A stretch of DNA of 64,000 nucleotides from a bacterium (GCA_030647555.1 JAUSJG010000007.1:36169-100168), one strand, 5' to 3'; counted from the first letter of the stretch, positions 14,688 through 38,038 are shown. Notes: generated from the sequence alone by a model not told the origin. Numbers and translations: made by a program.

Positions 14688-14834
14688 GGCCCCGTATATC
14701 AACTTCCAATTTGAACAAACTTTGTTTGTTCAAAACTGGCAAGCATTAAAATTAAAACTTTTTGCACGTTCATATTTTTTCTGATTAAGTAATTCATTAT
14801 TTTAAAATTGGAAGTTGTATTTCGGGGCATGACT
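14688..14834. repeat. Family A MITE-like element
   Basis: 147 bp between the rpmC stop and the rpsQ ATG. Termini CATGGCCCCGTATATCAAC / GTTGTATTTCGGGGCAT. Confidence 0.8.
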
Positions 14835-15116
14835 TTATTTCGTAGATGAATGAGAATTATTCTCATGTTCCGTAAGAATTGTCAACCCTTCGACGTTGCT
14901 CAGGGTTGACCCCTCGACTCGGCTCGGGGATAACCGTGACTCGTGTAGAACGGTCAAGCATCTCGCTAATTCATGACGGACCATCGATAATTTCTTAACA
15001 TTTTTTTCGCTTCCCTTCGCCGACCCAAAACGCATTTGTTCAATTTGGGCACGCAATTCTTCTACTTTGACTTTCAAAGTTTCCGGCGCAATTTGTCTTA
15101 ATTCTTTTGCTTTCAT
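14835..15116 (-). CDS. rpmC: 50S ribosomal protein L29 with a ~30 aa C-terminal extension
   Basis: Starts MKAKELRQ...KVKVEELRAQIEQMRF. The start is set at the ATG at 15116. Confidence 0.8.
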   Translation of the reverse strand: MKAKELRQIAPETLKVKVEELRAQIEQMRFGSAKGSEKNVKKLSMVRHELARCLTVLHESRLSPSRVEGSTLSNVEGLTILTEHENNSHSSTK

Positions 15117-15263
15117 ACCCAGTATATCAACTTCCAATATAAGCAATCGCGGATTGCTTATATTTAATTATAACTAAGCTTGCATTCTTCATATTATTCT
15201 GAATCAAATTTTGCTTGGAAATAAATTTCATAATATTGGAAGTTGTATTACTGGGCATAGGAT
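15117..15263. repeat. Family A MITE-like element; internal hairpin ATAAGCAATCgcgGATTGCTTAT
   Basis: 147 bp between the rplP stop and the rpmC ATG. Termini CATACCCAGTATATCAAC / GTTGTATTACTGGGCAT. Confidence 0.8.
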
Positions 15264-15686
15264 TTACAAAGATGATGTTTTACAAACAAAGGCGGTTTTT
15301 ACCGGCAATTTGTCGGAAGCCAAACGGATCGCGCGTTTTGTTGTTGCTTCATCCAATCCGTCAACTTCTAAAATAATACGCCCTCTGCGCACAACCGCCA
15401 CAAAGTGGTCGACCGCGCCCTTACCGGATCCCATTGGTACTTCCGCGCCCTTCTTCGTAATCGGCTTGTCCGGGAACACACGGATCCAAACTTTACCGGA
15501 ACGTTGCATAAAGCGTGTCATCGCGCGACGCGCCGCTTCCAGTTGACGCGCGGTAATCCAGCGACTTTCGAGCGCGCGCAAACCGTACTGGCCAAACGCT
15601 AACGTTGAACCGGCAACAGAGACTCCTCGCACCGAACCTTTTTGATGCTTACGGTGTTTGACTTTTTTGGGATTCAAAAGTGGCAT
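15264..15686 (-). CDS. rplP: 50S ribosomal protein L16
   Basis: 140 aa. L16 family; starts MPLLNPKKVKHRK. Confidence 0.9.
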   Translation of the reverse strand: MPLLNPKKVKHRKHQKGSVRGVSVAGSTLAFGQYGLRALESRWITARQLEAARRAMTRFMQRSGKVWIRVFPDKPITKKGAEVPMGSGKGAVDHFVAVVRRGRIILEVDGLDEATTKRAIRLASDKLPVKTAFVCKTSSL

Positions 15687-15769
15687 AATATTAGAAAATT
15701 TCAGCTAAATTGCGTTTATCAAACATTTCTGTAATCGAAGTTAAAATGTTTCGCAATATGCCACTAATT

Positions 15770-15905
15770 TTCAATTTACAATTATCAATTTTCAATGAAT
15801 TATCAATTCTTAAATTATCAAACAACGACGCGACGTTAATTTTTGAAAATTTAGATAATTGAAAATTAATTGCAAAATTGATAATTGATAATTGATAATT
15901 TACAA
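15770..15905. repeat. Family B long imperfect palindrome
   Basis: Arms AATTTTCAATTTACAATTATCAATTTTCAATGAATTATCAATTCTTAAATTATC and ATTGAAAATTAATTGCAAAATTGATAATTGATAATTGATAATT, around CAAACAACGACGCGACG. Confidence 0.8.
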
Positions 15906-15961
15906 AACTCATTTTCTTATCCGAATCATTTTGTGACATAAGCATCTTCATAAATTCATTA

Positions 15962-16603
15962 TTATTCGCTAACTTTGTCATCGGTATACATCCAAACTTT
16001 GACACCGATCGTACCAAAGGTTGTAAACGCGGTCGCTTCACCATAAGTAATGTTGGCACGCAAAGTGTGTAAAGGAAGATTTCCATCGCCCAACCATTCC
16101 GTGCGGGCAATATCCGCGCCATTCAAACGGCCCTTAACCTTGATACGCGCCCCTTTGGCACCGGATTGCATAATACGACCTATCGATTGCTTCAAGATTC
16201 TGCGGAAAGGCATGCGACGTTCCAGTTGATCGGCAATTGATAATGCGACAGTACCGGCATCGCGATCCGGACGCTTAACTTCTTGAACATTTACGCGAAT
16301 ATCTTTTTCACTGCCCAAGCGTATACGCAATTCTTTACGCATTTCCTCGATACCACTGCCACCGCGTCCGATTACGACTGCCGGACGCGCCGTCTTAATA
16401 TTGAAAGTAATGGCGCGCGGTGTGCGTTCAATATCAACAACATGCACCATACCCGTGCGAAACTTATCGCGGACTAATTTACGCAAGATAGTATCTTCTT
16501 TTAACTGGGTACGATATTCCAAAGGACGATCAGCAAACCACCTGGAAGCCCAAGTACCTGTAATACCGATACGTAAACCGCGGGGATGACAACGATGAGA
16601 CAT
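15962..16603 (-). CDS. rpsC: 30S ribosomal protein S3
   Basis: 213 aa. Starts MSHRCHPRGLRIG and has a KH domain. Confidence 0.9.
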   Translation of the reverse strand: MSHRCHPRGLRIGITGTWASRWFADRPLEYRTQLKEDTILRKLVRDKFRTGMVHVVDIERTPRAITFNIKTARPAVVIGRGGSGIEEMRKELRIRLGSEKDIRVNVQEVKRPDRDAGTVALSIADQLERRMPFRRILKQSIGRIMQSGAKGARIKVKGRLNGADIARTEWLGDGNLPLHTLRANITYGEATAFTTFGTIGVKVWMYTDDKVSE

Positions 16604-16675
16604 AAAGTATATTTTAAATAAAGCTATTTTCCAGAAATAAATTACTGCTATTTTCCTTTCCTGATTCAGTTACGC

Positions 16676-16810
16676 CCAAAAATCTCAAACTCCAAATCCC
16701 AAATCCCAAAAACTTACTCGACGCAAAACCCGCGACGCGATTCAATGCGTTTTTGGACATTTGGTCATTGAGATTTTTTTGGAAATTGGTCATTGGAAAT
16801 TGGAAATTAT
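16676..16810. repeat. Family C long imperfect palindrome
   Basis: Arms CTCAAACTCCAAATCCCAAATCCCAAAAAC and TTTTGGACATTTGGTCATTGAGATTTTTTTGGAAATTGGTCATTGGAAATTGG, around GACGCAAAACCCGCGACGCG. Confidence 0.75.
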
Positions 16811-16813
16811 CGT

Positions 16814-17344
16814 TTATCCTTCGCCTGCACGTCTTTGGAATGCTTGACGTGAACTCTTCGGCGAGGCGGCCTTTTTTACCGCGCCGGTTGAAGTCGCTTC
16901 TGTTTCCGTGCTCGTTTTCTCTTTCTTCACGGCAAGATCCTCCGCGGATAAATCTTCAATCTTTCGTCTTACAATTTCAGATTTCTTTCCTTCAATCTTC
17001 TTCTTACTTGGCTCACGTTCTGCTAAAAACATATCAATGTGGGAAGTCTTCTTTTCAATGCGGAAAGCGGCACCTTTGGATCTTGGCATAAAACGCTTAA
17101 GTTTCGTTCCACCACCAACTCGCACTTCCCTAACAAATAACTTCTCGGCATCCAATTCATAGTTATGTTTCGCGTTAGCAACCGCCGATTGCAAAAGTTT
17201 CAACAGAGGACCGGAACTGCGTTGTGGCAAAAACTGTAGAGTAGAAATCGCTTGCTTTATTGAAAGACCGCGTAGCTCTTTAGCTACCAAACGCACTTTG
17301 CGAGGGGCAATCCGTATAAAACCTAGTCGAGCGTGTATGTCCAT
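16814..17344 (-). CDS. rplV: 50S ribosomal protein L22 with a lysine/glutamate-rich C-terminal extension
   Basis: An L22 core followed by an ~60 aa charged tail. Confidence 0.85.
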   Translation of the reverse strand: MDIHARLGFIRIAPRKVRLVAKELRGLSIKQAISTLQFLPQRSSGPLLKLLQSAVANAKHNYELDAEKLFVREVRVGGGTKLKRFMPRSKGAAFRIEKKTSHIDMFLAEREPSKKKIEGKKSEIVRRKIEDLSAEDLAVKKEKTSTETEATSTGAVKKAASPKSSRQAFQRRAGEG

Positions 17345-17676
17345 TACTTTCCTTTCTCTTCCGGCGCCTTCAGAGCGGAGGACGCGGCTAACGCAACTTT
17401 TTGCGCTTCTTCCTTGGCCATCTGACCACCGTGACGAATAAACTTACGCGTCGGAGAAAATTCACCAAGCTTGTGCCCAACCATATCTTCCGTGCAATTT
17501 ACGGTAATAAAATCTTTTCCGTTATGCACCTGAAATTGAACGCCAACCATTTCCGGTGTAATCGAGCAAGCTCGGGACCAGGTCTTAATTGGCGTACGAT
17601 CGCCCGGGCGCTTATTTTGCACCTTCTTAATTACCCGTTCGTCCACGTAGGGACCCTTCTTGAGAGATCGAGACAT
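17344..17676 (-). CDS. rpsS: 30S ribosomal protein S19
   Basis: Starts [12 protein letters not shown] and contains GHKLGEF. Confidence 0.9.
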
Positions 17677-17747
17677 GTTAGGAAACCTTTAACGAAAAAT
17701 TAAGCAACTTACAACCATCTTCATTCAAACGATTATTCTCCTTAACA

Positions 17748-17900
17748 AGCCCCCAAATGTTCAATTTCCAATTACCAATTTTCAATAAATTATCAATGAT
17801 TAAATTATCAAATAACGCGCTCACGTCGTAGTATTTTGAAAATTCGAACTTTTGAAAATTATTTGAAAATTGCAAAATTGATAATTGAAAATTACCAATT
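17748..17900. repeat. Family B long imperfect palindrome
   Basis: Arms CCCCAAATGTTCAATTTCCAATTACCAATTTTCAATAAATTATCAATG... and ...TTTGAAAATTATTTGAAAATTGCAAAATTGATAATTGAAAATTACCAATT. Confidence 0.8.
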
Positions 17901-17953
17901 CTTCTCAAGCTCTTCATTGTTTTATCCACAATAGATGGTTTCATAATTTACTT

Positions 17954-18790
17954 TTATTTCTTCTTCCTTCTTTGAATAATAAACTGATTGGAATACTTCT
18001 TCTTATTTCTTGTCTTCACACCAAAAGCATGTTTACCCCACGGGGTTTTTGGATGACGCAAACCGATTGGGTTATGACCCTCACCACCACCGTGCGGATG
18101 ATCACAGGGATTCATGGCTTTTCCGCGGACACTTGGACGAATCCCCAAGCGACGATTTCTACCGGCAGCACCAATGCGTTCAATACGATGATCGGAATTA
18201 CTGACTTTGCCAATTGTAGCCCAACAACCGGCCGGCACCAAACGGATTTCACTGCTTGGCATTTTCAAGTGGGCGGAACCGCCTTCAACTTCTTGTAAAA
18301 TAGCGGACGAGCCGGCAGAACGAACGATTTGACCACCTTGTCCCGGGCGCAATTCAATGTTGAAAATTTCCGTACCGGATGGAATCGCCGTAAGTGGCAT
18401 ACGACAACCTATGCTCGGTTCCGTCTTTTCACCGGTTATCATTTTGTCGCCAACCTTGGCGCCTTCCCAGGCCAAATGATAACGCTTTTCACCATCCATA
18501 TAAGCAACCAATACGATAAAGCTTGTACGAATTGGATCATATTCCAAAGATTGAATCACACCTGGGATATCCAGTTTGTCTTGATGAAAATCGATCATGC
18601 GGTACATTTGACGCATTCCACCACCGTGATGACGCGTCGTAATACGACCAAGGTTATTGCGACCACCGGTCTTGCGCACAGAACTTCGAAGACGCTTTGG
18701 CGGACGGGCATGTCTGCTTAAAACACCGTAATCAACAACGGATGTTTTTCGGCGGGCCGGACTGGTTGGTTTGTAAATCTTTACAGGCAT
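17954..18790 (-). CDS. rplB: 50S ribosomal protein L2
   Basis: 278 aa. Contains GGGQ and shows L2 family similarity along its length. Confidence 0.95.
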   Translation of the reverse strand: MPVKIYKPTSPARRKTSVVDYGVLSRHARPPKRLRSSVRKTGGRNNLGRITTRHHGGGMRQMYRMIDFHQDKLDIPGVIQSLEYDPIRTSFIVLVAYMDGEKRYHLAWEGAKVGDKMITGEKTEPSIGCRMPLTAIPSGTEIFNIELRPGQGGQIVRSAGSSAILQEVEGGSAHLKMPSSEIRLVPAGCWATIGKVSNSDHRIERIGAAGRNRRLGIRPSVRGKAMNPCDHPHGGGEGHNPIGLRHPKTPWGKHAFGVKTRNKKKYSNQFIIQRRKKK

Positions 18791-18861
18791 ATCAGGAAGC
18801 TTTTAGGTTACAACTTAACTTATTCACATTTAATTTATTGATAACAACTACTGAATCTACA

Positions 18862-18985
18862 AAATCCCTAATTACCAATTTCCAATTACCAATTTCCAAT
18901 GAATGCCCAATTCCAAAATTTCCAAAAGGGACTACGCCAACATGCTTTGAAAATTTAGACATTTGAAAATTTGCAGTGGTATCAA
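18862..18985. repeat. Family B-like long imperfect palindrome of the CCAATT/AATTGG type
   Basis: Arms CCTAATTACCAATTTCCAATTACCAATTTCCAATGAATGCCCAATTCCAAAATTTCC and GCTTTGAAAATTTAGACATTTGAAAATTTGCAGTGG. Confidence 0.65.
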
Positions 18986-19018
18986 TATTCATTTTTGGGC
19001 AAATATTTTTCATAAAAG

Positions 19019-19453
19019 TCATTTTGTAAAATCAATAACCTCACCCTTGCGCACAAACACCACTGCTTTTCTGTATCCCGAAATCCTGCCCTCAATCGCG
19101 CCACGCATGCGCTTTTTTGGATGCACTGTCACAACATTGACGCGCGTCACATGCACCTTAAAACGTTTTTCCACAATCTGGTGAATTTCTTGCTTAGTAG
19201 CGTAATCGGCAATTTGAAATGTATAACGACCATCCGCGGAAAGGATGGCGGATTTTTCCGTAACAATCGGACGAATCAAAACATTGGCCTTAATTCCCTT
19301 AAAAGACGAAAGGTCGACGGAAGTTTTTTCTTCCTTTACTTCCTTGACTTTTTTTGCAGGTTTCTCGACACCATTTTCTTTTTTGTCCAACGCTTCTGCC
19401 GCGACAATATCAGCCTTGGTTTCTTTTTTCTTGAATACGGAGAGAATACTCAT
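19019..19453 (-). CDS. rplW: 50S ribosomal protein L23 with an ~45 aa N-terminal extension
   Basis: The L23 core is the C-terminal ~95 aa; the N-terminus is lysine/glutamate-rich. Confidence 0.8.
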   Translation of the reverse strand: MSILSVFKKKETKADIVAAEALDKKENGVEKPAKKVKEVKEEKTSVDLSSFKGIKANVLIRPIVTEKSAILSADGRYTFQIADYATKQEIHQIVEKRFKVHVTRVNVVTVHPKKRMRGAIEGRISGYRKAVVFVRKGEVIDFTK

Positions 19454-19457
19454 AATG

Positions 19458-20114
19458 TTATACTTTATCGCTGATACGGGTTTCTAAAACAGCGATGCCG
19501 GCCTTATCGGTTACAATTGTGGTTGTACGAAGCAAATCGTTGGCCGTAATCACTTCCGGATTTTTCACAATCACATCTTGCAAATTTCGACTGGCGCGCA
19601 AGTAGGGCGCGCGGGTGACTTTATCGCCCGAAACCAAAAACAAAACGATCCCTTTTACCGGCAACTTACCAAACGCCGCGACCAACTCTTTGGTCTTACC
19701 TGTGATTTTTGGTAAATCATTTAAGACAACCATTTCTTCATCCTTAATTTTTCCAACCAAAACACCGGCCAGGGCCGTGCGATTCATACCTTTCGGGGTG
19801 TGTGACGTGTAGTTTCGTTCCGCGCGAGGACCAAAAGCGACACCACCCTTACGCCAAATTGGCGAACGACTGGAACCGGCACGCGCGCGACCAGTCCCTT
19901 TTTGTTTCCACGGCTTAATACCGCCACCACGACGTTCGGAACGATCTTTGGTGTGAGCGCGACTAACGCGCTTGTTGGTATCGAAATTAACGGCCACTTG
20001 ATGTAACAAAATCGGCGAAACGGTTTTATTGTCCCAAGCGGAAAAACTGTCTTGCGTCGCCACTTTCTTTCCTTCTAAGTTTAAAATATTAATTTCCATA
20101 TTACTCTCCCACAA
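19458..20114 (-). CDS. rplD: 50S ribosomal protein L4
   Basis: 218 aa. L4 family. Confidence 0.9.
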   Translation of the reverse strand: MWESNMEINILNLEGKKVATQDSFSAWDNKTVSPILLHQVAVNFDTNKRVSRAHTKDRSERRGGGIKPWKQKGTGRARAGSSRSPIWRKGGVAFGPRAERNYTSHTPKGMNRTALAGVLVGKIKDEEMVVLNDLPKITGKTKELVAAFGKLPVKGIVLFLVSGDKVTRAPYLRASRNLQDVIVKNPEVITANDLLRTTTIVTDKAGIAVLETRISDKV

Positions 20115-20706
20115 TACTTAAAAGCGAATTCTTCGGACCGGGAACGGCGCCACGCACAACCAAAATGTTCGTATTTGGCACAACATCAACAACTTGAAGA
20201 CCCTTGGTTGTAACCTTCGCGCCACCCATCCGACCAGCCATACGCATACCTTTCAAAACGTGTTGGGGCCAACCGGAACCGATGGAACCCGGGGCACGTT
20301 CGGCGTGCTTTGTACCGTGCGTCGCGTTGTGGCCATGAAAATGATGTCGTTTTACGACACCGGCAAAACCCATACCTCGAGATGTTCCTGTCACATTGAC
20401 GATATCACCGACCTTAAACGTATTGACGTCTACCACATCACCACGTTTTAAGTCAGTCTTTTCAAAATTATAGGCCTTCAATGTTCTAAAATGCGGAAGT
20501 TCTTTCAGGTGACCAAGTTCGGCTTTTGTCATATTCTTTTCTTTTTTCTCGCCAAAACCAAGTTGCACTTGCTTGCCTTTTTCACCCATTTCACGAACCA
20601 AGGTAACTTGGCAAGGACCGGCTTGCATTAACGTAACAGGAACGGACTTTCCGTCCGTTTCAAAAATCGTTGTCATGCCGATCTTTTTGGCTAAAATTGC
20701 TTTCAT
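20101..20706 (-). CDS. rplC: 50S ribosomal protein L3
   Basis: 201 aa. L3 family. This is the first gene of the interrupted S10 operon segment. Confidence 0.9.
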   Translation of the reverse strand: MKAILAKKIGMTTIFETDGKSVPVTLMQAGPCQVTLVREMGEKGKQVQLGFGEKKEKNMTKAELGHLKELPHFRTLKAYNFEKTDLKRGDVVDVNTFKVGDIVNVTGTSRGMGFAGVVKRHHFHGHNATHGTKHAERAPGSIGSGWPQHVLKGMRMAGRMGGAKVTTKGLQVVDVVPNTNILVVRGAVPGPKNSLLSIVGE

Positions 20707-20920
20707 TATTCTCTTAATATAAAAATTTTACCGGGGCCTTCACCGAAGAACCCGTTCTCACGAGCAGACCCGCCAGTTTCCTGTTTCAGGACTTGGCCGG
20801 GATGGGGACTAGTTTTAATGAGCTGTGCAATATGTATACAGGGGAACGGATATCACGTCAAGCCCTGCTGACAACGAAATCCTATTCGCTTATAGAAGCC
20901 ATATTTTAGACTTTTTCCTC

Positions 20921-21062
20921 ATGAATTTTTAATTTGAAATTTGAAATTTTTAATCAATTTGAAATAAACTAATATCTTAATTTGAAAAACGCGTTTTTAT
21001 TTATTTCAAATTTGTGTATTAAAAATTGATTTCAAATTAAAAATTTCAAATTTCAAATTCGC
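20921..21062. repeat. Family D long imperfect palindrome. Arms are TTTGAAAT/ATTTCAAA units around GAAAAACGCGTTTTT.
   Basis: Near-identical arms occur at 41308-41451 and 44813-44948; all three share AATTTTTAATTTGAAATTTGAAATTTTTAATCAATTTGAAATA. Confidence 0.8.
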
Positions 21063-21163
21063 GAACACGCGCCTATTGACTTTTTCCCCGTTTGGGAGTA
21101 CAAATATTTGTTACTGACTTCTGTTTTTGGATTTCACCTCCTGTTTTTTCAAAGGAATTTACA

Positions 21164-21793
21164 ATGGAAAAGGGACAACATTTTGCGCTTTTGGCCGTCG
21201 AGGACAATACTCTCCACCTCCGCGATCTCATGCAAGTGATCGGCGAGTTGCCCGACGACTTTCCACTGGACTTGGAAATCAAGTGCGTGCGTTCATTGCG
21301 GGAAGCTCTGAACAACCTCGAGTCCGCCGACGGTGTCATTACTGACGTCTTCTTTCCCGAAATCCCTGACGGAGACGCCACCCAGCCAAACGGCAAAAAA
21401 GTCGTCGAGGCCTGCATCGCGGCACAGAAACCGGTGGTGTGGATTACGTCTACATATCACCACGGCACGATGACGAACGCTGTGAGTGAGTGGGGTCGCG
21501 ATCGCGGTCTCGAGATGTTCGACTGCCCTAACGCCGGCCGTGGAAGCGAAGAAGCGCCACACAAGCCATGGAAGGAGGCGCTATACGGCCTGATCTACAC
21601 GGCAGTAGAGATCGAGATGAAATTACTACAGTTCAAGGACGGACAGATTCAGCGGAGAGTAAACTATAATAAAGATTTCAGCCTGGCGGCAGGAATCTAT
21701 CGCGAATTGATGCTCCTCTATCTTTCCGCCGAAAATATCAAACCATACCCAGTCATGAAAAAGATGCTCGATATGGGTTTTCCGCGGAAGTAG
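21164..21793 (+). CDS. Putative stand-alone receiver-domain (CheY-like) protein with a C-terminal extension
   Basis: ALLAVEDN, a candidate phospho-acceptor D in GVITDVFFPE, and KPVVWITS. A possible SD, AAGGA, lies upstream. The assignment is tentative. Confidence 0.4.
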   Translation: MEKGQHFALLAVEDNTLHLRDLMQVIGELPDDFPLDLEIKCVRSLREALNNLESADGVITDVFFPEIPDGDATQPNGKKVVEACIAAQKPVVWITSTYHHGTMTNAVSEWGRDRGLEMFDCPNAGRGSEEAPHKPWKEALYGLIYTAVEIEMKLLQFKDGQIQRRVNYNKDFSLAAGIYRELMLLYLSAENIKPYPVMKKMLDMGFPRK

Positions 21794-21860
21794 CGACGCC
21801 CGCTTGCAACTCCGGCAGAATCCCTCCCCACCTCCCTTTGAATAAAGGGAGGAATCGCAC

Positions 21861-21903
21861 ACCCCAGCCAGGTTTTCCAACCTCGCTGGGGATTTTTATT
21901 TTT
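21861..21903 (+). terminator. Rho-independent terminator after the receiver-like gene
   Basis: CCCCAGCCaggttttccaacctcGCTGGGG followed by ATTTTTATTTTT. Confidence 0.6.
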
Positions 21904-22060
21904 CTCTTCAGAGAAAAATACCCCCCAAAGCTTTAGCGACGGGGGGTAAAGCCAGCTATCCCCCTCCGCTCCGCGTGTTCGCGGAGCTACGGGGGATTAT
22001 TATAATATAATTTTCCTTCAGAAAATATATATTATAATAAAAAACGGCTCGTGAGAACCG

Positions 22061-22381
22061 TTACTGCCCTACTACCGCTGGCTGGTGCAAAAAGTCAACC
22101 ATCTGTCGCCAACGAACGTACCGCGCACGGAGACTGGTCGGAACTATGCCCAATGTTTCCTCCATTGCCACTTTTTGTTTCATTTCTTCGATAGGAGGCA
22201 ACGCCTTAACATACACCGGCAATCTACCAATCATTTCCTGCAAAAATTTGACCGTCTTCGCGTTGTCCCCCGCGCGTAGAGCTGTATCGTGGCGCACCAA
22301 CGCTTCAGTCGACAACCATCTGTGCAACTCCCGAAACAACTCATCTACCGTGAAAGTGATTTCCGTGGCCATACAACCCAT
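22061..22381 (-). CDS. Hypothetical protein
   Basis: 106-aa ORF with no recognisable motif. Confidence 0.35.
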   Translation of the reverse strand: MGCMATEITFTVDELFRELHRWLSTEALVRHDTALRAGDNAKTVKFLQEMIGRLPVYVKALPPIEEMKQKVAMEETLGIVPTSLRARYVRWRQMVDFLHQPAVVGQ

Positions 22382-22619
22382 CCTTTTCTGTTGTTGGTTG
22401 ACTACCGATCTGAATGAACATTTTCTACTTAAATTAATCTATGACCAATTGTTTTTTTCGGCAAGCATGTATTTACAAAAGACCGCCCTTCGGGGCGGTC
22501 TTAATATTTTATTTGGATCCCGCTCTTCAGAGCGAGGCTCGCCCAGATGGGCGGCCCCGATGTCCACCCTCCGCTAAAGCTACTGGGTGGCAGGCGCTCG
22601 GGGATGACCCCTGAAGGGG

Positions 22620-22814
22620 TCACTTCATCGAGACGTCGACACCCGCCGGGATTTGCAAGCTTTGCAACGCGTCTACCGTCTTGGGTGTAAAGTTTTGAAT
22701 GTCGATGAGGCGCTTATGCACCCGAATTTCATACTGATCACGCGCGTCTTTGTGCACAAACGTTGAGCTGTTCACCGTGTAACGCTTCCGTTCTGTTGTT
22801 TCATCGGCGTGCAA
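22620..22814 (-). pseudogene. Duplicated 3' fragment of rpsJ (the last ~60 codons of S10) plus a copy of its terminator hairpin (22478-22504)
   Basis: Nucleotides 22478-22799 are ~95 % identical to 29472-29698. The two copies differ by an extra ~95 nt at 22505-22620. The encoded peptide [57 protein letters not shown] is identical to the S10 C-terminus. Confidence 0.85.
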
Positions 22815-22893
22815 AACAAGATGAAAGTGTTAAAAAGTCTTTCTCAACAATAAATGATAAGAAACACCCACAAAAAAAATCTGACTAGTGAAG

Positions 22894-24606
22894 TCAGATG
22901 CTATTAAAAAGTTTTCCATTAAATTTGCTCATCCATTTCTGAAACGGATGCAGAACCGCTTGTTTCACGTCCCCGATCCGCTGTCCTAACTCACCACACG
23001 TCTGCAAATACGTATTGTTTGCATCCTGTCCGTGGTCAATCAGGAAGAGCGCGCAATGCTCGAGTTGTCCGAGACGCCGACAGTAATCGTAGTGAAAGTT
23101 TTCCCTAAGACGACCATCGAGCCTTTGACAGAAGAGCACTGCAGAGTGGCCGTCAAGGACATGCCGATCACAAAACTGCAGAAACAACACATAGCGCACT
23201 ACTTCGCCTTGAAGGGTGTCAGGTGCTATCATGGCAAATTTTGCTACGATACCGCTCTCTGCCATCAACTGTCCTAGCACTTTGCCCACAAACACCTCGT
23301 TCATCTTTTCTCCGCAAACATCAACAACCTTGTCCTTTCGACCAACAAAGCAGATAAGAGGACAACTTCGTTTGAAACCGACAACTTCCACAACATCATT
23401 TAGTCGGTAGCGATAGAATCCACCCCCTGTTGTAACTATTACTGAATACCTTTTCCCCACGTTTAACTGATGTGCCAAACACACACTTTCGCTATCATCC
23501 TCCTCGAACTCAAAAAAATGCGAGTTAACAGACAGCGCCGAACCACTATTTCTTAGAGGAAAAGATACGAAAGCCTCCGTCGCCATCAAACCCTTGGGCT
23601 GAACAACACAGTTTGAAAAATCACGCTGAAGCCGACTTGCTGCCACCTGCGCATTTCCATCCGCCCAACAACTAATAAGTCGAAGATTGGGCCAGATTGC
23701 CTCGTAAATATTCGCTTGTTTCCCCGGAGACAATATCTGCCCCAATTCCTCGGCTCGCGCTGGAAGCCTTTGGAGACGTTTTCGAATGCGACCAGCTACC
23801 TCTTTTTCAACATTGAGTTCAACTGACAGCGCACCCTTACGAATGTCCCAAATCAACCTATCAGCCCAACTGTATAATGGCGAAAGAAGCAGACTTAGAA
23901 ATGAGGGGTTCCAAACGGAAATCCATGTTAATCCTCTCTCCTGTAGCAAAAACCTCAGCGTGGCGTACCTAAACGAATCCATGTCTGAGACCAACGCTAA
24001 TTCTGACGGTGCAGCCATCACGTGTTCAAAAACCGATTGCCCCACCACTCCAAGATAGTTTTTTTCATCATCAAAACCAATTGGAATTCCACCCTGCGTA
24101 TGGCGAACCTTGACCCCAACCGGCGTCACCGACCAGTAAGCTTTGCCGCCAATGATACTGGGGTATTCTGTCATAAGCGAAAAAATCCACGGCGCTATTC
24201 CCTCCTGAAACTGCGCGATCAATGACTTGGTGTATGGCACGAGTTTGGATGCCATTGTTGATCCGCTTGTCACACCAAATCTCTGAACCCTCTCGCTGGT
24301 CAAAACACCATTCTCCCCCCCTTCTATGCGTTTCACATACGGAACTAAATCTTCATAAGAACGAATTGGCACTAGTTGTTGGAAATTGGAAATTGAATGA
24401 ATTTCACGGAATTGATGTTCTTGTCCAAACGCTGTTTCCCTGTTCCCGACAACAATAGCCTTGAGACACTTTGTTTGAGCGATTTCCACTTCGTTAATTG
24501 AGTTATACCACCTTCTCGCCCCAAAACTGACACTAGCCAACCAAACACTGTTACAAATGGTGGTTGTGAAGTTCATCTTCTCTCCTTTGCTTCCGACATG
24601 AACCAA
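22894..24606 (-). CDS. GH3-family acyl-adenylate-forming amido synthetase
   Basis: GVTSGSTMASKLVPYT matches the GH3 SSGT-type P-loop. YRYRLNDVVEVVGF matches the GH3 YRxGD motif. About 560 aa. The start may instead be MNFTT at 24576. Confidence 0.7.
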   Translation of the reverse strand: MVHVGSKGEKMNFTTTICNSVWLASVSFGARRWYNSINEVEIAQTKCLKAIVVGNRETAFGQEHQFREIHSISNFQQLVPIRSYEDLVPYVKRIEGGENGVLTSERVQRFGVTSGSTMASKLVPYTKSLIAQFQEGIAPWIFSLMTEYPSIIGGKAYWSVTPVGVKVRHTQGGIPIGFDDEKNYLGVVGQSVFEHVMAAPSELALVSDMDSFRYATLRFLLQERGLTWISVWNPSFLSLLLSPLYSWADRLIWDIRKGALSVELNVEKEVAGRIRKRLQRLPARAEELGQILSPGKQANIYEAIWPNLRLISCWADGNAQVAASRLQRDFSNCVVQPKGLMATEAFVSFPLRNSGSALSVNSHFFEFEEDDSESVCLAHQLNVGKRYSVIVTTGGGFYRYRLNDVVEVVGFKRSCPLICFVGRKDKVVDVCGEKMNEVFVGKVLGQLMAESGIVAKFAMIAPDTLQGEVVRYVLFLQFCDRHVLDGHSAVLFCQRLDGRLRENFHYDYCRRLGQLEHCALFLIDHGQDANNTYLQTCGELGQRIGDVKQAVLHPFQKWMSKFNGKLFNSI

Positions 24607-25312
24607 GTAAGCGAATCGCCGTAGCCGTAAAATTTGCTCGGGCTATCGGTGCCACACAAACAAGTTCCGTGCCCGTTAGATATGTAGGGTTTTTCTCAAA
24701 AAAGAAACGTGTGTAAGTATCGAGTTTTTGAGGCGGTTCTGCATCAATACTCCCCGGCACCAGACGTTGGGTTTCTCTTGAAAATAATACTCGACCGCTA
24801 CCAGGATCATATTCTTCAGGATATTTCAACAAACCGAAAGCATCTCTCACGACAAGATCTTGAGCCTGATCTTCCCCATCAGGCCTTGGTAAGAAATGCC
24901 GAAAAAAGAACGGCAAGACCCGGTAAGTGCGCCACCCCTTAGACATTAAAATATAGTAGACCTCGCGTGCAGGATGAGACTCCAATACATGCACGAAATA
25001 GCGCATAATTTCGACACCGAAACCGGCACTACAGCGGCAAGCGTCGACTACAACTGTGTCCCCAGAGAATACCCCCATCACACTTCTCCCAAAGACCTGA
25101 AGGTCTAAAACCATGAGCGTCGAAAATCCGACGATTTCTCCATTTGGCAAATCGCGCCGAAGTAGCATGACCACTTCTTTTTCACGCAGATCGTGTGCAA
25201 ACACTTCTTTGTCTACACCCAAAAATACGCGTGTTAGAAGCCAAAACATCCGTTCTGTTTCTTGAACCGTCAGATCCTCAACTGTTTTCGTAAATCCTAA
25301 TATTTTGGACAT
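24551..25312 (-). CDS. Hypothetical protein, possibly a GNAT-fold N-acyltransferase
   Basis: 253 aa. Size and secondary-structure pattern are compatible with N-acyl amino acid synthase-like GNAT proteins. There is no decisive motif. Confidence 0.35.
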   Translation of the reverse strand: MSKILGFTKTVEDLTVQETERMFWLLTRVFLGVDKEVFAHDLREKEVVMLLRRDLPNGEIVGFSTLMVLDLQVFGRSVMGVFSGDTVVVDACRCSAGFGVEIMRYFVHVLESHPAREVYYILMSKGWRTYRVLPFFFRHFLPRPDGEDQAQDLVVRDAFGLLKYPEEYDPGSGRVLFSRETQRLVPGSIDAEPPQKLDTYTRFFFEKNPTYLTGTELVCVAPIARANFTATAIRLLGSCRKQRREDELHNHHL

Positions 25313-25458
25313 GATTATCCCCTCCAGGAAAAGTTGTCAAAAAAACACTACGTACGTTAGTACTAGCACAAATGCTTGCATTAGCAAATATTAGTTGCTA
25401 CCTTGAGCCAGCAGAAGTTTTTTCCCAATGAAATAAGCTAAACAAGGAGTACTTTGAC

Positions 25459-26784
25459 ATGACAAGAATACTGTTCATTATGCCCGACGCGCACATGCAC
25501 AAGTTGAAATTGTTTGGATTCACAAAGTCTTTGCGTGAAGCACCACTAACCCTCACCACTCTCGCCTCGATGGTTCCTAGTGGCCACCACATAACGATTG
25601 TCGACGGCAGTATTGACCCAATCCCCATGGACTACAAAGCGGACATAGTAGCGATAAGTTGTATAACGGGCACATGTCGACAAGGCTACGTATTGGCAGA
25701 TCATTTCAGACACAAGGGTTCATACGTGGTTATTGGCGGAGTGCATGCTTCAATCCTGCCTGACGAGGCACAGGAACATGCAGATACTGTAATAGTGGGA
25801 CCAGCGGAATTCTCCTGGCCGACATTTCTTACCGACTATTCTTCTGAAAAACAAAAGAAGCGTTATGGAAGTATCGACTGCTACCACGACGACGTTCTCA
25901 GGGATGTGCCTTTACCAAGAAGAGATCTCCAAAGAAATAGCGGTTACACACTGCCGGCAACAGTCCAAGCAACAAGGGGTTGTAAACATCGATGCGATTT
26001 CTGTTGCGTCAATGCAGTGTGGCCGAGATTTGTTAAACGACCCATAGCAGACGTGATCAGAGACATTTCGTCATTGCCTGGCAAGAGGATGGTTTTCAAC
26101 GATGTGAGTCTTGTCGACGATGTCGAATACGCAAAAGAACTCTTTAGGGCAATGATCCCTCTCAGAAAACATTGGGGTGGATTAGCGACTGTGCTTGTGG
26201 TCAAAGACGATGAACTCGTTGATTTAATGATGCGGAGCGGTTGTAAGTATCTTCTGCTTGGGTTTGAATCGGGAAATCAAGGTGTGCTAAAAGACATTGC
26301 CAAAGGGTTCAACCACGCAATCAACTACCACGAAGTTGTCGATAAACTACACGCGCATGACATAACAATCCAGGGCTGCTTCGTTTTTGGTTTCGATCAC
26401 GACACAGAAGATGTCTTTGAAAGTACGGTGGCAACAGTAGACGATCTTGGAATCGACATCCCTCGCTATTCCATTTACACACCATACCCGGGAACACCAC
26501 TTTTTGAACGATTGCAATCCGAGGGAAGAATCATCAGTCTTAACTGGAATAATTACGACACAATGCATGTAGTATTCCAGCCAAAGCTAATGACACCAGA
26601 ACGCTTGTATGACGGCTTCAAGTGGTCCTACAAACAAACGTTTAAAATACCGCGCATCGCAAGACGAACAATGTGGAACGGAAGGCACCCATCGGTAATC
26701 AATTTCGTCGGCAATCTCGCATACAGAATCTTCGTAAGAAGATTATATCGAGAAGAAAGATTCGCCCGTCCATTTATGCCCTAG
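25459..26784 (+). CDS. B12-binding-domain radical SAM protein
   Basis: An N-terminal cobalamin-binding-like domain, then CKHRCDFCC (CxxxCxxC). Confidence 0.8.
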   Translation: MTRILFIMPDAHMHKLKLFGFTKSLREAPLTLTTLASMVPSGHHITIVDGSIDPIPMDYKADIVAISCITGTCRQGYVLADHFRHKGSYVVIGGVHASILPDEAQEHADTVIVGPAEFSWPTFLTDYSSEKQKKRYGSIDCYHDDVLRDVPLPRRDLQRNSGYTLPATVQATRGCKHRCDFCCVNAVWPRFVKRPIADVIRDISSLPGKRMVFNDVSLVDDVEYAKELFRAMIPLRKHWGGLATVLVVKDDELVDLMMRSGCKYLLLGFESGNQGVLKDIAKGFNHAINYHEVVDKLHAHDITIQGCFVFGFDHDTEDVFESTVATVDDLGIDIPRYSIYTPYPGTPLFERLQSEGRIISLNWNNYDTMHVVFQPKLMTPERLYDGFKWSYKQTFKIPRIARRTMWNGRHPSVINFVGNLAYRIFVRRLYREERFARPFMP

Positions 26785-26850
26785 TCAAACGTCACTCCGA
26801 AGTGTGACGTTTTTTTAAAAACCTTGCTATGTGCAATAGCAAGGTAATTT

Positions 26851-27957
26851 CTACAAAGTCGCCAATTCGAGATGCGACGTCTTGAGACATGGAAGATCTA
26901 CTCCGCTATCTGCCCAATACACCAAGTATATATTACTCCGAAGCTGCCTACAGGCATACTTGGAAGCAATCCCTGACAATCCATTTCCTACACAAAGAGC
27001 AACGCAGAGGTAGTCATGCCCTCTGCCCGACCAGATTTGACATGCGCGACTCAAAAGAGATTCGAACACTCCGCGATCATCATCTTCTGAACTCATAAAA
27101 CAAGCACTCAATGTTTTAACTTCACCTCCGATCTTAGGAATAATTGGTTTGCCAAGTAGACGAGAATTGCAGTTTAAGAATGGTCGCAACAAACTCAACC
27201 TACAGGACAGACCAGTAACCACGGTTTGCTTAAATGATTGCTGATTCCACACACCAAATGTCCCCAAAATACGACCCCTTGATTCGCAAACAAGCAAGTC
27301 ATCACTACTGAAACCAAGAGAAAAGTCGTTTTTTACAAAAATTTCTTCAAACCGATAAGTGGGCGCAAATTGATAACGCTGATTCCACCGCTCAAGACAT
27401 TTATGGGCTAAGGGCAATTGATGATAAGGACATTTCTGTACATCAACATCAACTTTTCCACACATATTTCTTTTTTTGATTGGTATTAAATACGTTACAA
27501 GTGTGCCGATTTGGTGGTAAACAGGATGACCCGCCCGTGGCCTTTGCAAAACACTCTGAAATCGACCGTTCTCCTCCAAAATTGTTGTTAAGTAATATGG
27601 GACCTCTCCGTCTTCATGCAGTGTTCGCAAGTGGCGATGAGCTTTCGCTAGTGTCATACCCCCGCGAAATTCTGGTAAAAGACGGAGCATATTCAAGTAA
27701 CCAATCGCCTTCTTTTCACCATCAACGTATAAGTTTCGCACACTTCGACAGGCAAAACCCACAACATCACCCGCAACTCCCGCTCGACAAACAATCGTCT
27801 GATTCTTTTCATTTCCAATTTTTCCAACTGCAAAAAAACTTGGCTCTCGCAAGAACGCAAGAGATATATCGCCGGGCATTGGTGTCCGACGCAGGATGTT
27901 CCTCATTGCCTCATCATCTGCCGTGTTGGCGAAATCAATCACAGATCTGGTGTTCAC
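26851..27957 (-). CDS. Hypothetical protein, possibly a tandem acyltransferase fold
   Basis: 368-aa ORF with no clear motif. It sits inside the rSAM/GH3 cluster. Confidence 0.35.
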   Translation of the reverse strand: MNTRSVIDFANTADDEAMRNILRRTPMPGDISLAFLREPSFFAVGKIGNEKNQTIVCRAGVAGDVVGFACRSVRNLYVDGEKKAIGYLNMLRLLPEFRGGMTLAKAHRHLRTLHEDGEVPYYLTTILEENGRFQSVLQRPRAGHPVYHQIGTLVTYLIPIKKRNMCGKVDVDVQKCPYHQLPLAHKCLERWNQRYQFAPTYRFEEIFVKNDFSLGFSSDDLLVCESRGRILGTFGVWNQQSFKQTVVTGLSCRLSLLRPFLNCNSRLLGKPIIPKIGGEVKTLSACFMSSEDDDRGVFESLLSRACQIWSGRGHDYLCVALCVGNGLSGIASKYACRQLRSNIYLVYWADSGVDLPCLKTSHLELATL

Positions 27958-27970
27958 TTTTTTGTCCTCT

Positions 27971-29317
27971 CTAGTAGATTGGTTCGGGAAGTGTTGGTTT
28001 TTCCCCTAACGGCAGGCCATCACGTTGAGTTATCTCCCTGCGCAAAAGCCAATTGACATATGCAAACACTCCGGCCTTTTTGACTGAACTGCAGTTTCCT
28101 CGAATATTACTTGCCCTCCTGACAATACTTCGGAAACTATAGAATTTGCGACGAGCTTCAATACACGCTTTGTGCAACTCCTCGGCGGATATTCCATTTG
28201 GTCTGAAAACAATATCGCCAAACCGAAACGATGGTGACAACCACCACTCATCATCCGTCAACTGACCACCACTCTGGAATTGCTCGTAAAGTGGCGTGCC
28301 AGGAAACGGAACAAGATGGTTAAATGCCCCAATAAAGAGTCCAAAATCGATAGCCGCCTCCGTTGTTCTTTGGATATCCTCCTTGGTCTCATTGCCATAA
28401 CCGAAAACAAATGTCCCATAAAGCGCTATTCCATAACCATGAATGATGTCGATGAGTCTTTTGTAATCTCCCAATTTGATGTTTACCTTCTTGCCCATGC
28501 TAGCTAGTGTGTCACGCCGGAGAGACTCAAAGCCTATGAGTATTCCAACGCAACCACTCCTAGCCATCAATTCAAGCAGTTCGCAATCATTGGCCATCGT
28601 TAACGTGCCCTGACCCACCCACTTGATCTTATGTGGGATTAGCTCCCGACAAAGGTCTTTTGCGTGCGCCGGATTACCCACAAAGTTATCTTCGACGAAA
28701 AAAACTTCTCTGTTTTGAAGCAACGCAATCTCTTCAACAACACTGTCAATAGAACGCGCCGTATACGTTGAAGAAGTGACTGCGGCAATCGAACAGAAAT
28801 TGCATCCAAATGGGCATCCGCGCCCGGTTTCAACGCATGATAATGGAAAATACGATCTTGTTCCGAAAATTTCCCTCCTTGGGAGAACAAAATTGTATGA
28901 CACGGATCGATCTTGCGAATATCGTCGCTTCAGGCACCCTGCTTGCGCATCACGCATCACTTGTCCCCAAATTAGTTCTGCGTAACCAATAACAATACTA
29001 TCGGCATACCTTTGCGCTTCTTCGGGTCTCAGTGTTACATGATATCCACCAAGAACAGTTTTCACGCCTCTTTGGTGATATTCCCTAACAATCTCGTATG
29101 CTCTTTTTGCCGTGTAAGCCTCAACCGTAATCGCAACAAGATCTGTTGACAAATCAAAGTTGATATTCTCAAAACGGTCATCAAAAAAAGATACTTCCAC
29201 ATCAACTGGTGTGAGGCCAGCCAGTGTAGCAATCGGAAGCGGTTCCATTTGCCAAGTACGCACATACTTTCCACCAGGCCTCTTCCCAACACTTGGCATA
29301 ATAAACGTAACCTTCAT
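27971..29317 (-). CDS. B12-binding-domain radical SAM protein
   Basis: An N-terminal B12-binding-like domain, then GRGCPFGCNFCSI (CxxxCxxC). It is a paralog of the 25459 gene. Confidence 0.8.
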   Translation of the reverse strand: MKVTFIMPSVGKRPGGKYVRTWQMEPLPIATLAGLTPVDVEVSFFDDRFENINFDLSTDLVAITVEAYTAKRAYEIVREYHQRGVKTVLGGYHVTLRPEEAQRYADSIVIGYAELIWGQVMRDAQAGCLKRRYSQDRSVSYNFVLPRREIFGTRSYFPLSCVETGRGCPFGCNFCSIAAVTSSTYTARSIDSVVEEIALLQNREVFFVEDNFVGNPAHAKDLCRELIPHKIKWVGQGTLTMANDCELLELMARSGCVGILIGFESLRRDTLASMGKKVNIKLGDYKRLIDIIHGYGIALYGTFVFGYGNETKEDIQRTTEAAIDFGLFIGAFNHLVPFPGTPLYEQFQSGGQLTDDEWWLSPSFRFGDIVFRPNGISAEELHKACIEARRKFYSFRSIVRRASNIRGNCSSVKKAGVFAYVNWLLRREITQRDGLPLGEKPTLPEPIY

Positions 29318-29459
29318 CTTTGAATCCTTATGTTCGAATTGTGAATGAACTCAATACTAGATCCGTGCGACAACACTATCACAACCAAATATTTTAACAA
29401 ATACAATTCCTGACCAACGAATCCCTCGATCGCTACGCGCGTGGTATTAGGGAAAGGAG

Positions 29460-29497
29460 CAAATCAAACATAAGACCGCCCTTGCGGGCGGTCTTAT
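29460..29497 (-). terminator. Hairpin terminator downstream of rpsJ
   Basis: AAGACCGCCCttgcGGGCGGTCTT. T-rich flanks on both strands suggest it may act in both directions. It is duplicated at 22478-22504. Confidence 0.55.
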
Positions 29498-29512
29498 CTA
29501 TAGTATATTTTA

Positions 29513-29899
29513 TTATTTCATAGACACATCTACACCTGCCGGGATTTGCAGGCTCTGCAACGCGTCTACCGTCTTGGGTGTAAAGTTTTGAATATCGATG
29601 AGGCGCTTGTGGACGCGAATCTCATACTGATCACGCGCGTCTTTGTGCACAAACGTTGAGCTGTTCACCGTGTAACGCTTCCGTTCTGTTGGAAGCGGTA
29701 CCGGACCAAAAACGCGGGCTCCGGTTCTGATCACCGTATCGGCAATTTGCTTTGCCGATTGATCCACGAGCTTGTAATCATAAGCCTTGATCTTGATGCG
29801 AATTCTCGGCCCCGTTTGTTCCGGAGTGACAGCCACGGCTTCCGCCACAACCTCATCCGTAACATCTTTGGCGTCGTCAATTATTTCGTCCGTAGGCAT
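29513..29899 (-). CDS. rpsJ: 30S ribosomal protein S10 with an ~25 aa acidic N-terminal extension
   Basis: The C-terminal 100 aa are canonical S10: [10 protein letters not shown]...RLIDI. Confidence 0.9.
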
Positions 29900-29925: not shown

Positions 29926-31131
29926 TTATTTGAGAATCTTGGTAACGATACCGGCACCGACTGTGCGACCACCTTCACGGATAGCAAAACGCATTTGTTG
30001 TTCCATGGCTACTTCCTTAATCAATGTTACAACACCCTTCACTGTGTCACCCGGCATAACCATTTCCGTACCTTCCGGTAAAGCGACTTCTCCTGTTACA
30101 TCCGTTGTGCGGATATAAAATTGCGGTTTGTAGCCCTTGAAGAACGGCGTGTGACGTCCGCCTTCATCTTTTGTCAAAACGTAGATTTCACATTCAAATT
30201 GAGAGTGAGGCGTGATGGATCCCGGCTTGGCCAAAACTTGACCACGCTCGACATCTTCTTTCTTTGTGCCACGGAGCAAGACACCGGCGTTATCTCCGGC
30301 CAAACCTTCGTCCAAAGTTTTGTTGAACATTTCAATACCGGTAACAATCGACTTGGCGGTTGGACGCAAACCAACGATTTCTACTTCATCGTTTGTGTGC
30401 ACCTTTCCTCTTTCAATACGACCGGTAACAACTGTTCCGCGACCTTCAATGGAGAAAATATCTTCAATGGAGAGCAAAAACGGTTGATCAATGGCGCGAA
30501 CGGGTTCCGGAATGGCTTCGTCCAAAGCAGCAACCAAATCGTAAACGGATTTTGCACCCGGATCTTCCGCGGAAGTGGCCTTCAACGCTTGCAAGGCGGA
30601 TCCGCGAATGACTCTGGCCTTTTCGCCATCATAATGATACTTGGAAAGAATTTCGCGCACTTCGGCTTCCACCAAATCAACCAATTCCGGATCATCCACC
30701 GCGTCAACTTTGTTTAAGAAAACGACAATTTCCGGAACACCAATTTGGTACGCAAGCAAAACGTGTTCACGAGTTTGTGGCATTGGACCGTCAATAGCCG
30801 ATACGACCAAAATTGCGCCGTCCATTTGCGCGGCACCGGTGATCATGTTCTTGACATAATCAGCGTGGCCAGGACAGTCAACGTGGGCATAATGACGCTT
30901 TTCCGAGGAATATTCGGTGTGCGCGGTAGCGATTGTTAAAATTTTAGTCGGATCACGACGACCTTCTTTTTCAGAAGCTTTTGCGATATCATCGTAACTT
31001 CGATCTGTCGCCAAACCCTTAAGGGACATAACGTGCGTCAACGCTGCGGTTAAGGTTGTCTTTCCGTGATCAACGTGACCAATGGTCCCGACGTTAATGT
31101 GCGGCTTATTTCTCTCAAACTTTTCTGCCAT
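29926..31131 (-). CDS. tuf: Elongation factor Tu
   Basis: 401 aa. [15 protein letters not shown] and NKVD GTPase motifs. Confidence 0.97.
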
Positions 31132-37904: not shown

Positions 37905-37957
37905 TTAAATATTTTTTTATTGCAATAGAGTTCATTAGCCCTGATACTATTATAGTT

Positions 37958-38028: not shown

Positions 38029-38038
38029 CGATAAAAAA

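Follow-up and report, generated by a model that had tools for sequence, protein, structure and literature searches.

A five-gene island bracketed by a resident and a foreign-type rpsJ 3' end at a transcription-unit boundary of a patescibacterium

RESULTS AND DISCUSSION

Organization of the rpsJ-rplC interval

The subject of this work is a 6.67-kb island that separates the ribosomal protein genes rpsJ (S10) and rplC (L3) in a metagenome-assembled genome (MAG; GenBank assembly accession number GCA_030647555.1). The analyzed stretch of 64,000 nucleotides (nt), contig JAUSJG010000007.1, positions 36169 to 100168, is referred to as the window, and its numbering is used throughout. Judged from its sequence, the host is a bacterium of the candidate phylum Patescibacteria, to which the relatives of the locus also belong. 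In gene direction, i.e., on the minus strand, tuf and rpsJ are followed by a terminator, a spacer of 150 nt, five genes, a terminator, a spacer of 80 nt, and a partial copy of rpsJ. Beyond this copy lie a GC-rich segment of 116 nt, a second terminator hairpin, an open reading frame (ORF) for 106 amino acids (aa) with its terminator (ORF106), a palindrome, an ORF on the opposite strand, an AT-rich inverted repeat, and rplC. The features are as follows:

29926-31131, minus strand: tuf (EF-Tu), resident upstream neighbor; ORF; syntenic in all relatives
29513-29899, minus strand: full-length rpsJ (S10, 128 aa); Pfam Ribosomal_S10 at 7.8e-33
29470-29497, minus strand: rpsJ terminator hairpin assigned as imported, AAGACCGCCC-GCAA-GGGCGGTCTT; T-run interrupted
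22799-29467, minus strand: 6.67-kb island; five-gene operon only, plus 150 nt upstream and 95 nt downstream
22620-22798, minus strand: displaced rpsJ 3' end assigned as resident (58 codons plus TGA); intact, peptide identical to that of the functional tail
22504-22619, minus strand: resident GC-rich tetraloop hairpin array; begins at the TGA stop codon; fold z-score of -5.9
22475-22503, minus strand: resident rpsJ terminator hairpin, then TTTTG
22061-22381, minus strand: ORF106; no family match; GC content at third codon positions (GC3) of 0.58; own terminator at 22043-22062
21997-22040, no strand: AT-rich palindrome, unique in the window
21092-21793, plus strand: opposite-strand ORF; 233 aa from TTG or 209 aa from ATG at 21164; GC3 of 0.65
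20923-21060, no strand: AT-rich inverted-repeat element, arms AATTTGAAATTTGAAATTTTTAAT; one member of a dispersed family
20715-20861, minus strand: rplC promoter and structured leader (leader at about 20807-20715)
20101-20706, minus strand: rplC (L3), first gene of the downstream ribosomal protein operon

The NCBI record of the same S10 protein begins at a downstream GTG start codon; exact look-ups of this form and of the 128-aa sequence returned no entry.

Two diverged copies of the rpsJ 3' end

A preliminary description of this stretch had reported a direct duplication of the rpsJ 3' end together with its terminator, and the comparison of the repeats bears this out. The direct repeat comprises positions 22624-22798 (lower copy) and 29517-29691 (upper copy); in frame, it extends over 22620-22798 and 29513-29691, i.e., over 179 nt consisting of 2 nt, 58 codons, and the stop codon. 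The same terminator hairpin follows each copy (22475-22503 and 29468-29496, 90% identical). The copies differ at 14 of the 179 positions, which corresponds to an identity of 92.2% instead of the previously stated value of about 95%; their first 70 nt are identical, and their last 109 nt are 87% identical. At the joint between positions 22799 and 22798, the shared sequence is only the dinucleotide CA (2 nt), and the donor sequence past the joint is needed for judging microhomology.

Synonymous changes account for all 13 differences in sense codons, and the stop codons differ as well (TAA in the upper copy, TGA in the lower copy). Of the single-base changes possible in these codons, only 22% would be synonymous, which puts the probability of a purely synonymous outcome (13 of 13) under neutral decay at 3e-9. 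Because of this pattern, we conclude that the two tails diverged under purifying selection, within working rpsJ genes of different lineages, and the all-synonymous divergence serves as an internal proof that the DNA originated from a sister lineage. A repeat that is both direct and local could also have arisen by tandem duplication of the rpsJ tail at this site, followed by divergence and by the insertion of unrelated genes between the copies, but a nonfunctional copy should then have gathered mostly nonsynonymous changes, and the tails moreover side with different sets of relatives and differ in their stop codons and in the layout of their 3' untranslated regions (UTRs). Local duplication with subsequent drift was rejected on account of the synonymous-only pattern, and we regard it as extremely improbable.

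Resident and foreign tails

The relatives with the highest nucleotide identity to the window in the flanking regions are loci L016 (88%), L009/L010 (87%), L097 (85%), and L007 (84%), and in all of them the TGA stop codon of rpsJ is immediately succeeded by a row of small hairpins rich in GC and then by a terminator, exactly as in the lower copy. In the upper copy, TAA precedes a short AT-rich spacer and a terminator, and the same arrangement is found in the more distant loci L005 (79%), L096 (80%), and L099 (76%). The variable sites (n = 14) show the same partition: matches to the lower versus the upper copy number 9:4 in L016, 9:5 in L097, and 7:3 in L007, and matches to the upper versus the lower copy number 9:5 in L005, 6:4 in L096, and 7:3 in L099. 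Within the last 109 nt, the identity of L016 amounts to 94.5% for the lower tail, compared with 89.9% for the upper one; the donor-type tail is 84 to 90% identical to genus-level relatives. Identity to the first relatives alone had left the native tail undecided, and the 3' UTR layout together with the nearest relative, L016, settled the assignment.

These comparisons show, at the level of sequence, that the lower tail with TGA and the hairpin array is resident and that the upper tail with TAA and the simple terminator is foreign. The segment next to the lower copy, which had been taken for an extra insert of about 95 nt at 22505-22620, actually measures 116 nt (22504-22619) and is the native 3' UTR instead of an insertion, since the closest relatives have the same combination of TGA and hairpin array. 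The earlier suggestion that the two copies have different histories is thus well borne out by their synonymous-only divergence, their affinities to different groups of relatives, and their different stop codons and 3' UTR layouts.

The functional rpsJ gene itself is a hybrid of a resident 5' part and an imported tail: at the sites that distinguish the two sets of relatives, it matches the resident type up to nt 276 and the foreign one at nt 384 and 386, so that the switch falls between nt 276 and nt 384. Its parts can be delimited as the resident portion (29692-29899), the block identical to the remnant (29622-29691), and the imported tail with TAA (29513-29621). An imported tract upstream of rpsJ nt 209 was also looked for, and the informative sites there are too few to show one. 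Compared with L016, the remnant has neither nonsynonymous changes nor frameshifts, and for this reason the insertion appears to be recent on the scale of species divergence. The locus accordingly documents a recent gene gain in a reduced-genome patescibacterium that is both clean and datable.

Assembly support for the junctions

An independent assembly of SRR13727527 with k = 31 yielded contig L011 of 6,817 nt, which is 100% identical to the window from position 29585 down to 22769 and ends exactly 30 nt (k-1) into the shared stretches on both sides. Since this contig spans both inner junctions, these are real: the island is contiguous with the imported tail and terminator, and its far end is fused to rpsJ nt 209.

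The source is a MAG, and the 70-nt identical block is an ambiguous graph node at small k, so that the arrangement might in principle be an artifact in which an uninterrupted chromosome and a separate circular or strain-variant molecule carrying the island were threaded together via the 70-nt repeat. The outer connections are indeed not shown by L011, which breaks at the repeats. Nevertheless, two assemblies contain the fusion of the island end to rpsJ nt 209, a repeat of 70 nt is shorter than a normal read and than the large k of MAG assemblers and should therefore be resolved, and the copies are not identical, which argues against a collapsed repeat. A 6.9-kb circle without any replication or mobility gene is furthermore implausible as a stable entity, and the NCBI annotation gives the same consecutive gene order (MDO8511931 to MDO8511936). 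An assembly artifact is therefore very unlikely.

Gene content of the island

ORF calls and Pfam searches agree with the previously described five genes between the copies, four of which lie on the minus strand:

27971-29317, minus strand: B12-binding radical SAM enzyme, 448 aa; Pfam B12-binding and Radical_SAM
26851-27957, minus strand: 368-aa protein Q7S57_01570, predicted tandem-GNAT acyltransferase fold
25459-26784, plus strand: second B12-binding radical SAM enzyme, 441 aa, with DUF4070; opposite to the other four genes
24551-25312, minus strand: 253-aa protein without family match
22894-24606, minus strand: GH3-family acyl-acid amido synthetase, 570-aa ORF; Pfam GH3 at 6e-51, plus GH3_M and GH3_C
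22879-22899, minus strand: operon-closing terminator-like hairpin with T-run

For the 448-aa radical SAM enzyme, all NCBIfam matches (HpnJ, BchE, and lipid radical SAM families) were below threshold, and homologues with 60 to 61% identity are present in L012 and L013. Searches of Pfam, NCBIfam, and the PDB sequences returned nothing usable for the 253-aa and 368-aa proteins of the island or for the 233-aa and 106-aa proteins encoded downstream of it. The AlphaFold2 (AF2) model of the 368-aa protein, built from 32 homologues, has a predicted local distance difference test score (pLDDT) of 91.8, and the nearest structures retrieved with Foldseek were N-myristoyltransferases and the tandem GNAT protein MAB_4324 (E value of ~1e-13, template modeling score of ~0.6); on the basis of this model, a tandem-GNAT acyltransferase is predicted. 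The orthologues of the 253-aa protein in L013 to L015 bear a weak Acetyltransf_9 (GNAT) mark. The GH3 protein is annotated with 560 aa at NCBI (MDO8511931.1).

The same gene module with conserved order occurs at unrelated loci of other Patescibacteria, e.g., in a Candidatus Paceibacter MAG and in GCA_030688645.1, with amino acid identities of 40 to 61%. In the latter assembly (L012:11928-13229 and 13463-21340), genes for a large serine recombinase (Resolvase, Recombinase, and Zn_ribbon_recom domains) and a type I restriction-modification system come directly after the module, and the radical SAM/GNAT/GH3 module may adjoin or sit inside a mobile region there. The combination of GH3, tandem GNAT, and two B12-radical SAM enzymes represents a conserved, uncharacterized module. 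The five-gene operon probably makes or remodels a lipid, an N-acyl-amine, or an amino-lipid, and it may allow organisms that are thought to lack lipid synthesis to modify acyl chains or to make N-acyl amines.

The GC content and GC3 of the island are host-like and its pooled codon usage is only mildly deviant, which fits a related donor. The nearest non-self homologues of the GH3 protein are 55 to 58% identical, the best match among 5.8 billion searched proteins being 58%, and a first scan of genome contigs with this protein recovered no close relative; with a nearest homologue this distant, the donor lineage appears to be unsampled. Neither the island edges nor the ORF106 region had a match in the 177 fetched loci, and the donor can therefore not be traced.

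A transcription-unit boundary with variable cargo

The preliminary description regarded S10-L3 as one of the most conserved operon junctions in bacteria, which would have been opened at least twice in the window. Comparison with the relatives revises this view. Outside the clade, which we define by loci whose S10 protein is at least about 75% identical to that of the window, the distance between rpsJ and rplC ranges from 102 to 1,032 nt in GTDB species representatives, and the median of the 63 metagenome loci in which it could be measured is 227 nt. Inside the clade, the gap varies between 0.4 and at least 10 kb, and the cargo is different in nearly every relative:

L005: gap of 0.40 kb, no cargo
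L001: gap of 0.64 kb, no cargo
L007: gap of ~1.35 kb, homologue of the opposite-strand ORF of the window (44% amino acid identity)
L176: gap of 1.5 kb, unrelated opposite-strand gene
L098: gap of 1.7 kb, two small ORFs
L097: gap of 5.1 kb, 923-aa surface protein
L016: gap of at least 5.3 kb, homologous 1,324-aa surface protein and IS630-family (DDE_3) transposase
L018: gap of at least 9.5 kb, sugar-nucleotide genes
L100: gap of at least 10 kb, no rplC; glycolytic block directly after rpsJ

None of the relatives examined carries the gene content of the island between rpsJ and rplC. In this clade, terminator hairpins follow rpsJ, and a separate promoter and leader precede rplC, so that the two genes of the window are neither adjacent nor part of one transcription unit as in a canonical S10 operon. 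The sequence comparison shows instead that the rpsJ/rplC interval of the clade is a boundary of two transcription units and a hotspot of variable cargo, and the arrangement of terminator, promoter, and leader indicates that the island landed between the two units. The supposedly breached operon junction is hence a hypervariable boundary. In this clade, the S10/L3 junction is unprotected and repeatedly gathers surface proteins, an IS630-family transposase, sugar-nucleotide genes, and the five-gene operon.

Several details of the relatives deserve mention. The surface proteins of L016 (10644-15650) and L097 (3461-6232) are rich in repeats, have CHB_HEX_C_1 and Fn3_assoc domains in common, and share a 75%-identical segment; the IS630-family DDE_3 transposase of L016 is located at the contig end. 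In L100 (8975-17716), rpsJ is followed by a block of GT2, GalT, TIM, FBA, GAPDH, PGK, and enolase genes, which implies that the whole stretch from rplC to secY was moved or lost there; a part of this block (FBA, TIM, GalT, and GT2) follows the ribosomal protein operons in the window (250-4015). The rplC leader of L007 (8040-8163) is succeeded up to the contig end by unrelated sequence and not by rplC, which may reflect a further insertion or an assembly break.

The rplC promoter of the window is sigma-70-like, with a -35 box TTGACG (20861-20856), a spacing of 17 nt, and a -10 box TATACA (20838-20833). The conserved leader of ~110 nt comprises three helices, the last of which is a long hairpin with a U-run just before the ribosome-binding site, and compensatory changes were found in 9 of the 32 predicted pairs. 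It is also present in L097 (7990-8150), L007 (7900-8060), L005 (10620-10785), L176 (3950-4103), L001 (10850-11011), and L098 (11900-12059). Rfam contained no match to the leader; nothing reached the gathering thresholds, and the region 20600-22700 gave only chance-level matches. The last hairpin looks like an attenuator, which makes the element a candidate clade-specific ribosomal protein leader of the L3-L4 operon. The copy in the window (20715-20740, minus strand) lacks the 3' arm of this hairpin, with GGCCCCGG and TAAAATTTTTATA on either side of the gap compared with GGCCCCGGATTTATCCGGAATCTTCACTGAAGAATTTTTATA in L007, and this deletion of ~22 nt would abolish the putative attenuator.

Arrival of the island

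An integrase or recombinase was detected neither among the five island proteins nor in any scanned long ORF of the 64-kb window, in agreement with the preliminary description, and the island is missing from every related locus examined. Since no island gene encodes mobility, DNA uptake followed by host recombination would be the most likely route, and a self-encoded integrase is less likely. The operon would have been acquired horizontally from a sibling lineage of Patescibacteria, along with the donor's own rpsJ 3' end and terminator, by recombination in or beside the 70-nt rpsJ stretch that is identical in both copies. The imported tail would have been fused to the resident 5' part of rpsJ, which kept S10 intact, and the resident tail, together with the array of hairpins and the terminator, would have been displaced beyond the insert as an unexpressed remnant. 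Such an outcome could result from a Campbell-type integration, from the double crossover of a preformed cassette in which the rpsJ tail served as a homology arm, or from a one-ended homologous event combined with an illegitimate second joint (homology-facilitated illegitimate recombination); the recombination route itself is something that we infer. The perfect identity over 70 nt directly abuts the 13%-diverged tail; an exchange, perhaps accompanied by conversion, in the longest identical stretch agrees with this pattern, which is not in itself proof of the exchange site. A candidate DNA-uptake channel, by domain content, is the ComEC protein (Competence and DUF4131 domains) encoded at 43218-44798.

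The architecture of the locus is also what the preliminary description expected of an integrative element that restores its target gene. According to this explanation, a site-specific element would have entered the 3' end of rpsJ with a replacement tail in its phage-type attachment site (attP), and its integrase would have been lost or, encoded elsewhere, would have acted in trans. Integrase-less derivatives of such islands are cis-mobilizable elements (CIMEs). The direct repeats with the 3' end of the target bracket foreign DNA, the gene is restored, and the identical block, beyond which the sequence is element-specific, could house a crossover core. [quoted passage not shown] However, the island and the scanned ORFs of the window lack an integrase, the edges of 150 and 95 nt are too short to accommodate a decayed integrase gene, and no arm-type repeats were found at them. 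A second rpsJ fragment was present in none of 160 related loci (80 GTDB species representatives and 80 metagenome loci) and in none of the extra relatives, which speaks against a recurrent use of the site, and viral contigs contained no attP with an rpsJ tail, the single match being spurious, i.e., located out of frame in the tail gene of a phage. One metabolic operon makes up the whole cargo, and rpsJ is not among the known targets compiled in PMC4701971. Thus, the gene-restoring architecture and the absence of the island from close relatives stand, and the lack of an integrase, arm repeats, recurrent site use, and an attP makes a site-specific element the less likely explanation, although it is the most probable of the alternatives.

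We consider an integrase-independent horizontal acquisition from a sister lineage, which restored the target gene and took place at an operon boundary, to be somewhat more probable than all other explanations together. Several points weigh against it. The duplication of the 3' end of a target gene is exactly what a site-specific integrase yields, and the search for an integrase acting in trans covered 64 kb of the 172-kb contig. The 70-nt identity next to a divergence of 13% requires either chance conservation, with a likelihood of ~3 to 6%, or putative gene conversion at the exchange. A simple linear illegitimate event needs a left crossover upstream of nt 209, which the few informative sites do not show. 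The donor lineage is represented in no database, as reflected by the 58% identity of the nearest GH3 protein, and natural competence of the host is suggested by ComEC as the sole indication.

As a more specific variant, the island might act as a cassette without an integrase, in which a copy of the rpsJ tail provides a portable arm of homology; it would spread among sibling Patescibacteria by uptake and host RecA and might loop out via the 70-nt block. We judge this scenario to be rather improbable; if it were true, the rpsJ terminator region would be a clade-wide docking site for swappable cargo that does not depend on a dedicated recombinase.

Other layers and repeat families in the window

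The preliminary description also named an opposite-strand ORF, a 106-aa ORF, and a palindrome (21997-22040), and all three are present. The GC3 values of the opposite-strand ORF (0.65) and ORF106 (0.58) are far above those of the host genes (~0.43), which suggests that the two ORFs are of separate, foreign origins and form other, older layers of the locus. No counterpart of ORF106 was found in any of the 177 fetched loci. The opposite-strand ORF shares 44% identity with its positional counterpart in L007, and it is older than the split from this lineage. Its proposed receiver-like nature could not be confirmed by Pfam, BLASTP, or a structure model: Response_reg (PF00072) gave no match at an E value of ≤5, BLASTP against CheY was not significant, and the single-sequence AF2 model (pLDDT of 41) was too poor for a structure search. 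A weak match to Response_reg (PF00072; E value of 3.8e-4) was obtained for the gene in the corresponding position of L099.

Strings of GC-rich tetraloop hairpins are located between genes at three sites of the window (22504-22619, 8855-8910, and 50860-50900), and the motif that the array downstream of rpsJ had been said to share with position 8868 is indeed an exact match of 24 nt (8868-8891 and 22532-22555). Homologous arrays follow the rpsJ stop codon in L007, L009/L010, L016, and L097. These strings may be stabilizer or terminator elements resembling repetitive extragenic palindromic (REP) sequences. The AT-rich inverted-repeat family with arms AATTTGAAATTTGAAATTTTTAAT is represented at 20923-21060, 44821-44944, and 41319-41342, and the arms occur in 5 copies in the window, compared with 0 expected by chance. 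Similar AT-rich palindromes are found in intergenic positions of many other Patescibacteria loci, e.g., L083, L049, L036, and L152.

Elsewhere in the window, a homing-endonuclease-associated repeat (HNH_repeat) protein (37137-38029) adjoins the only tRNA gene, tRNA-Pro (GGG). A defense-type cluster at 53867-60544 includes a fused N6-methylase and specificity protein (844 aa), a Schlafen/AlbA_2 and HATPase_c_4 protein (479 aa), and a type I/III restriction helicase subunit (859 aa).

Comparison with known systems

With respect to its cargo, the island recalls the OlsH/OlsI ornithine-lipid pathway of planctomycetes, in which a GH3 adenylating amido-synthetase is likewise clustered with acyltransferase-type proteins, and the N-acylation of ornithine during the synthesis of amino-lipids is an established activity of bacterial GH3 enzymes (OlsH; PMC12493201). 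However, the match of the island GH3 protein to the NCBIfam model of OlsH is weak, its 62 bits being far below the cutoff of 620, and an OlsI-type alpha/beta-hydrolase is lacking among the five proteins according to Pfam. The island has instead the tandem GNAT, the 253-aa protein, and the two B12-radical SAM enzymes.

With respect to its arrival, recombination of the kind proposed here has been described in Acinetobacter, Streptococcus pneumoniae, and Pseudomonas stutzeri. Homologous recombination and homology-facilitated illegitimate recombination after natural transformation (summarized in PMC3240628) resemble the present case in the use of a conserved gene as the anchor, the related donor, the cargo without mobility genes, and the presence of an encoded ComEC. 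Such recombination, however, usually deletes recipient DNA, whereas a duplicate of 179 nt was left behind here; the microhomology at the junction amounts to just 2 nt, and the competence of the host is deduced from a ComEC gene.

The closest architectural parallel is found in the islands, ICEs, and IMEs (integrative and mobilizable elements) of tyrosine recombinases, in which foreign DNA is likewise enclosed by direct repeats that hold the 3' end of a conserved gene, the element-borne tail rebuilds this gene, and the native tail is left at the far end; they enter the 3' ends of tRNA or housekeeping genes, and in the streptococcal elements, the landing site is also a ribosomal protein gene (PMC4701971). 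Unlike these elements, the rpsJ island contains no integrase, excisionase, relaxase, or conjugation gene, its long repeat (179 nt and the hairpin) has diverged by 8%, and its host is a patescibacterium and not a Streptococcus. The target rpsJ is unreported, and the site is not recurrently occupied in the relatives. Altogether, this genomic island is real but fairly ordinary, and it is unusual in its target gene rpsJ, in the phylum of its host, and in being devoid of any mobility gene.

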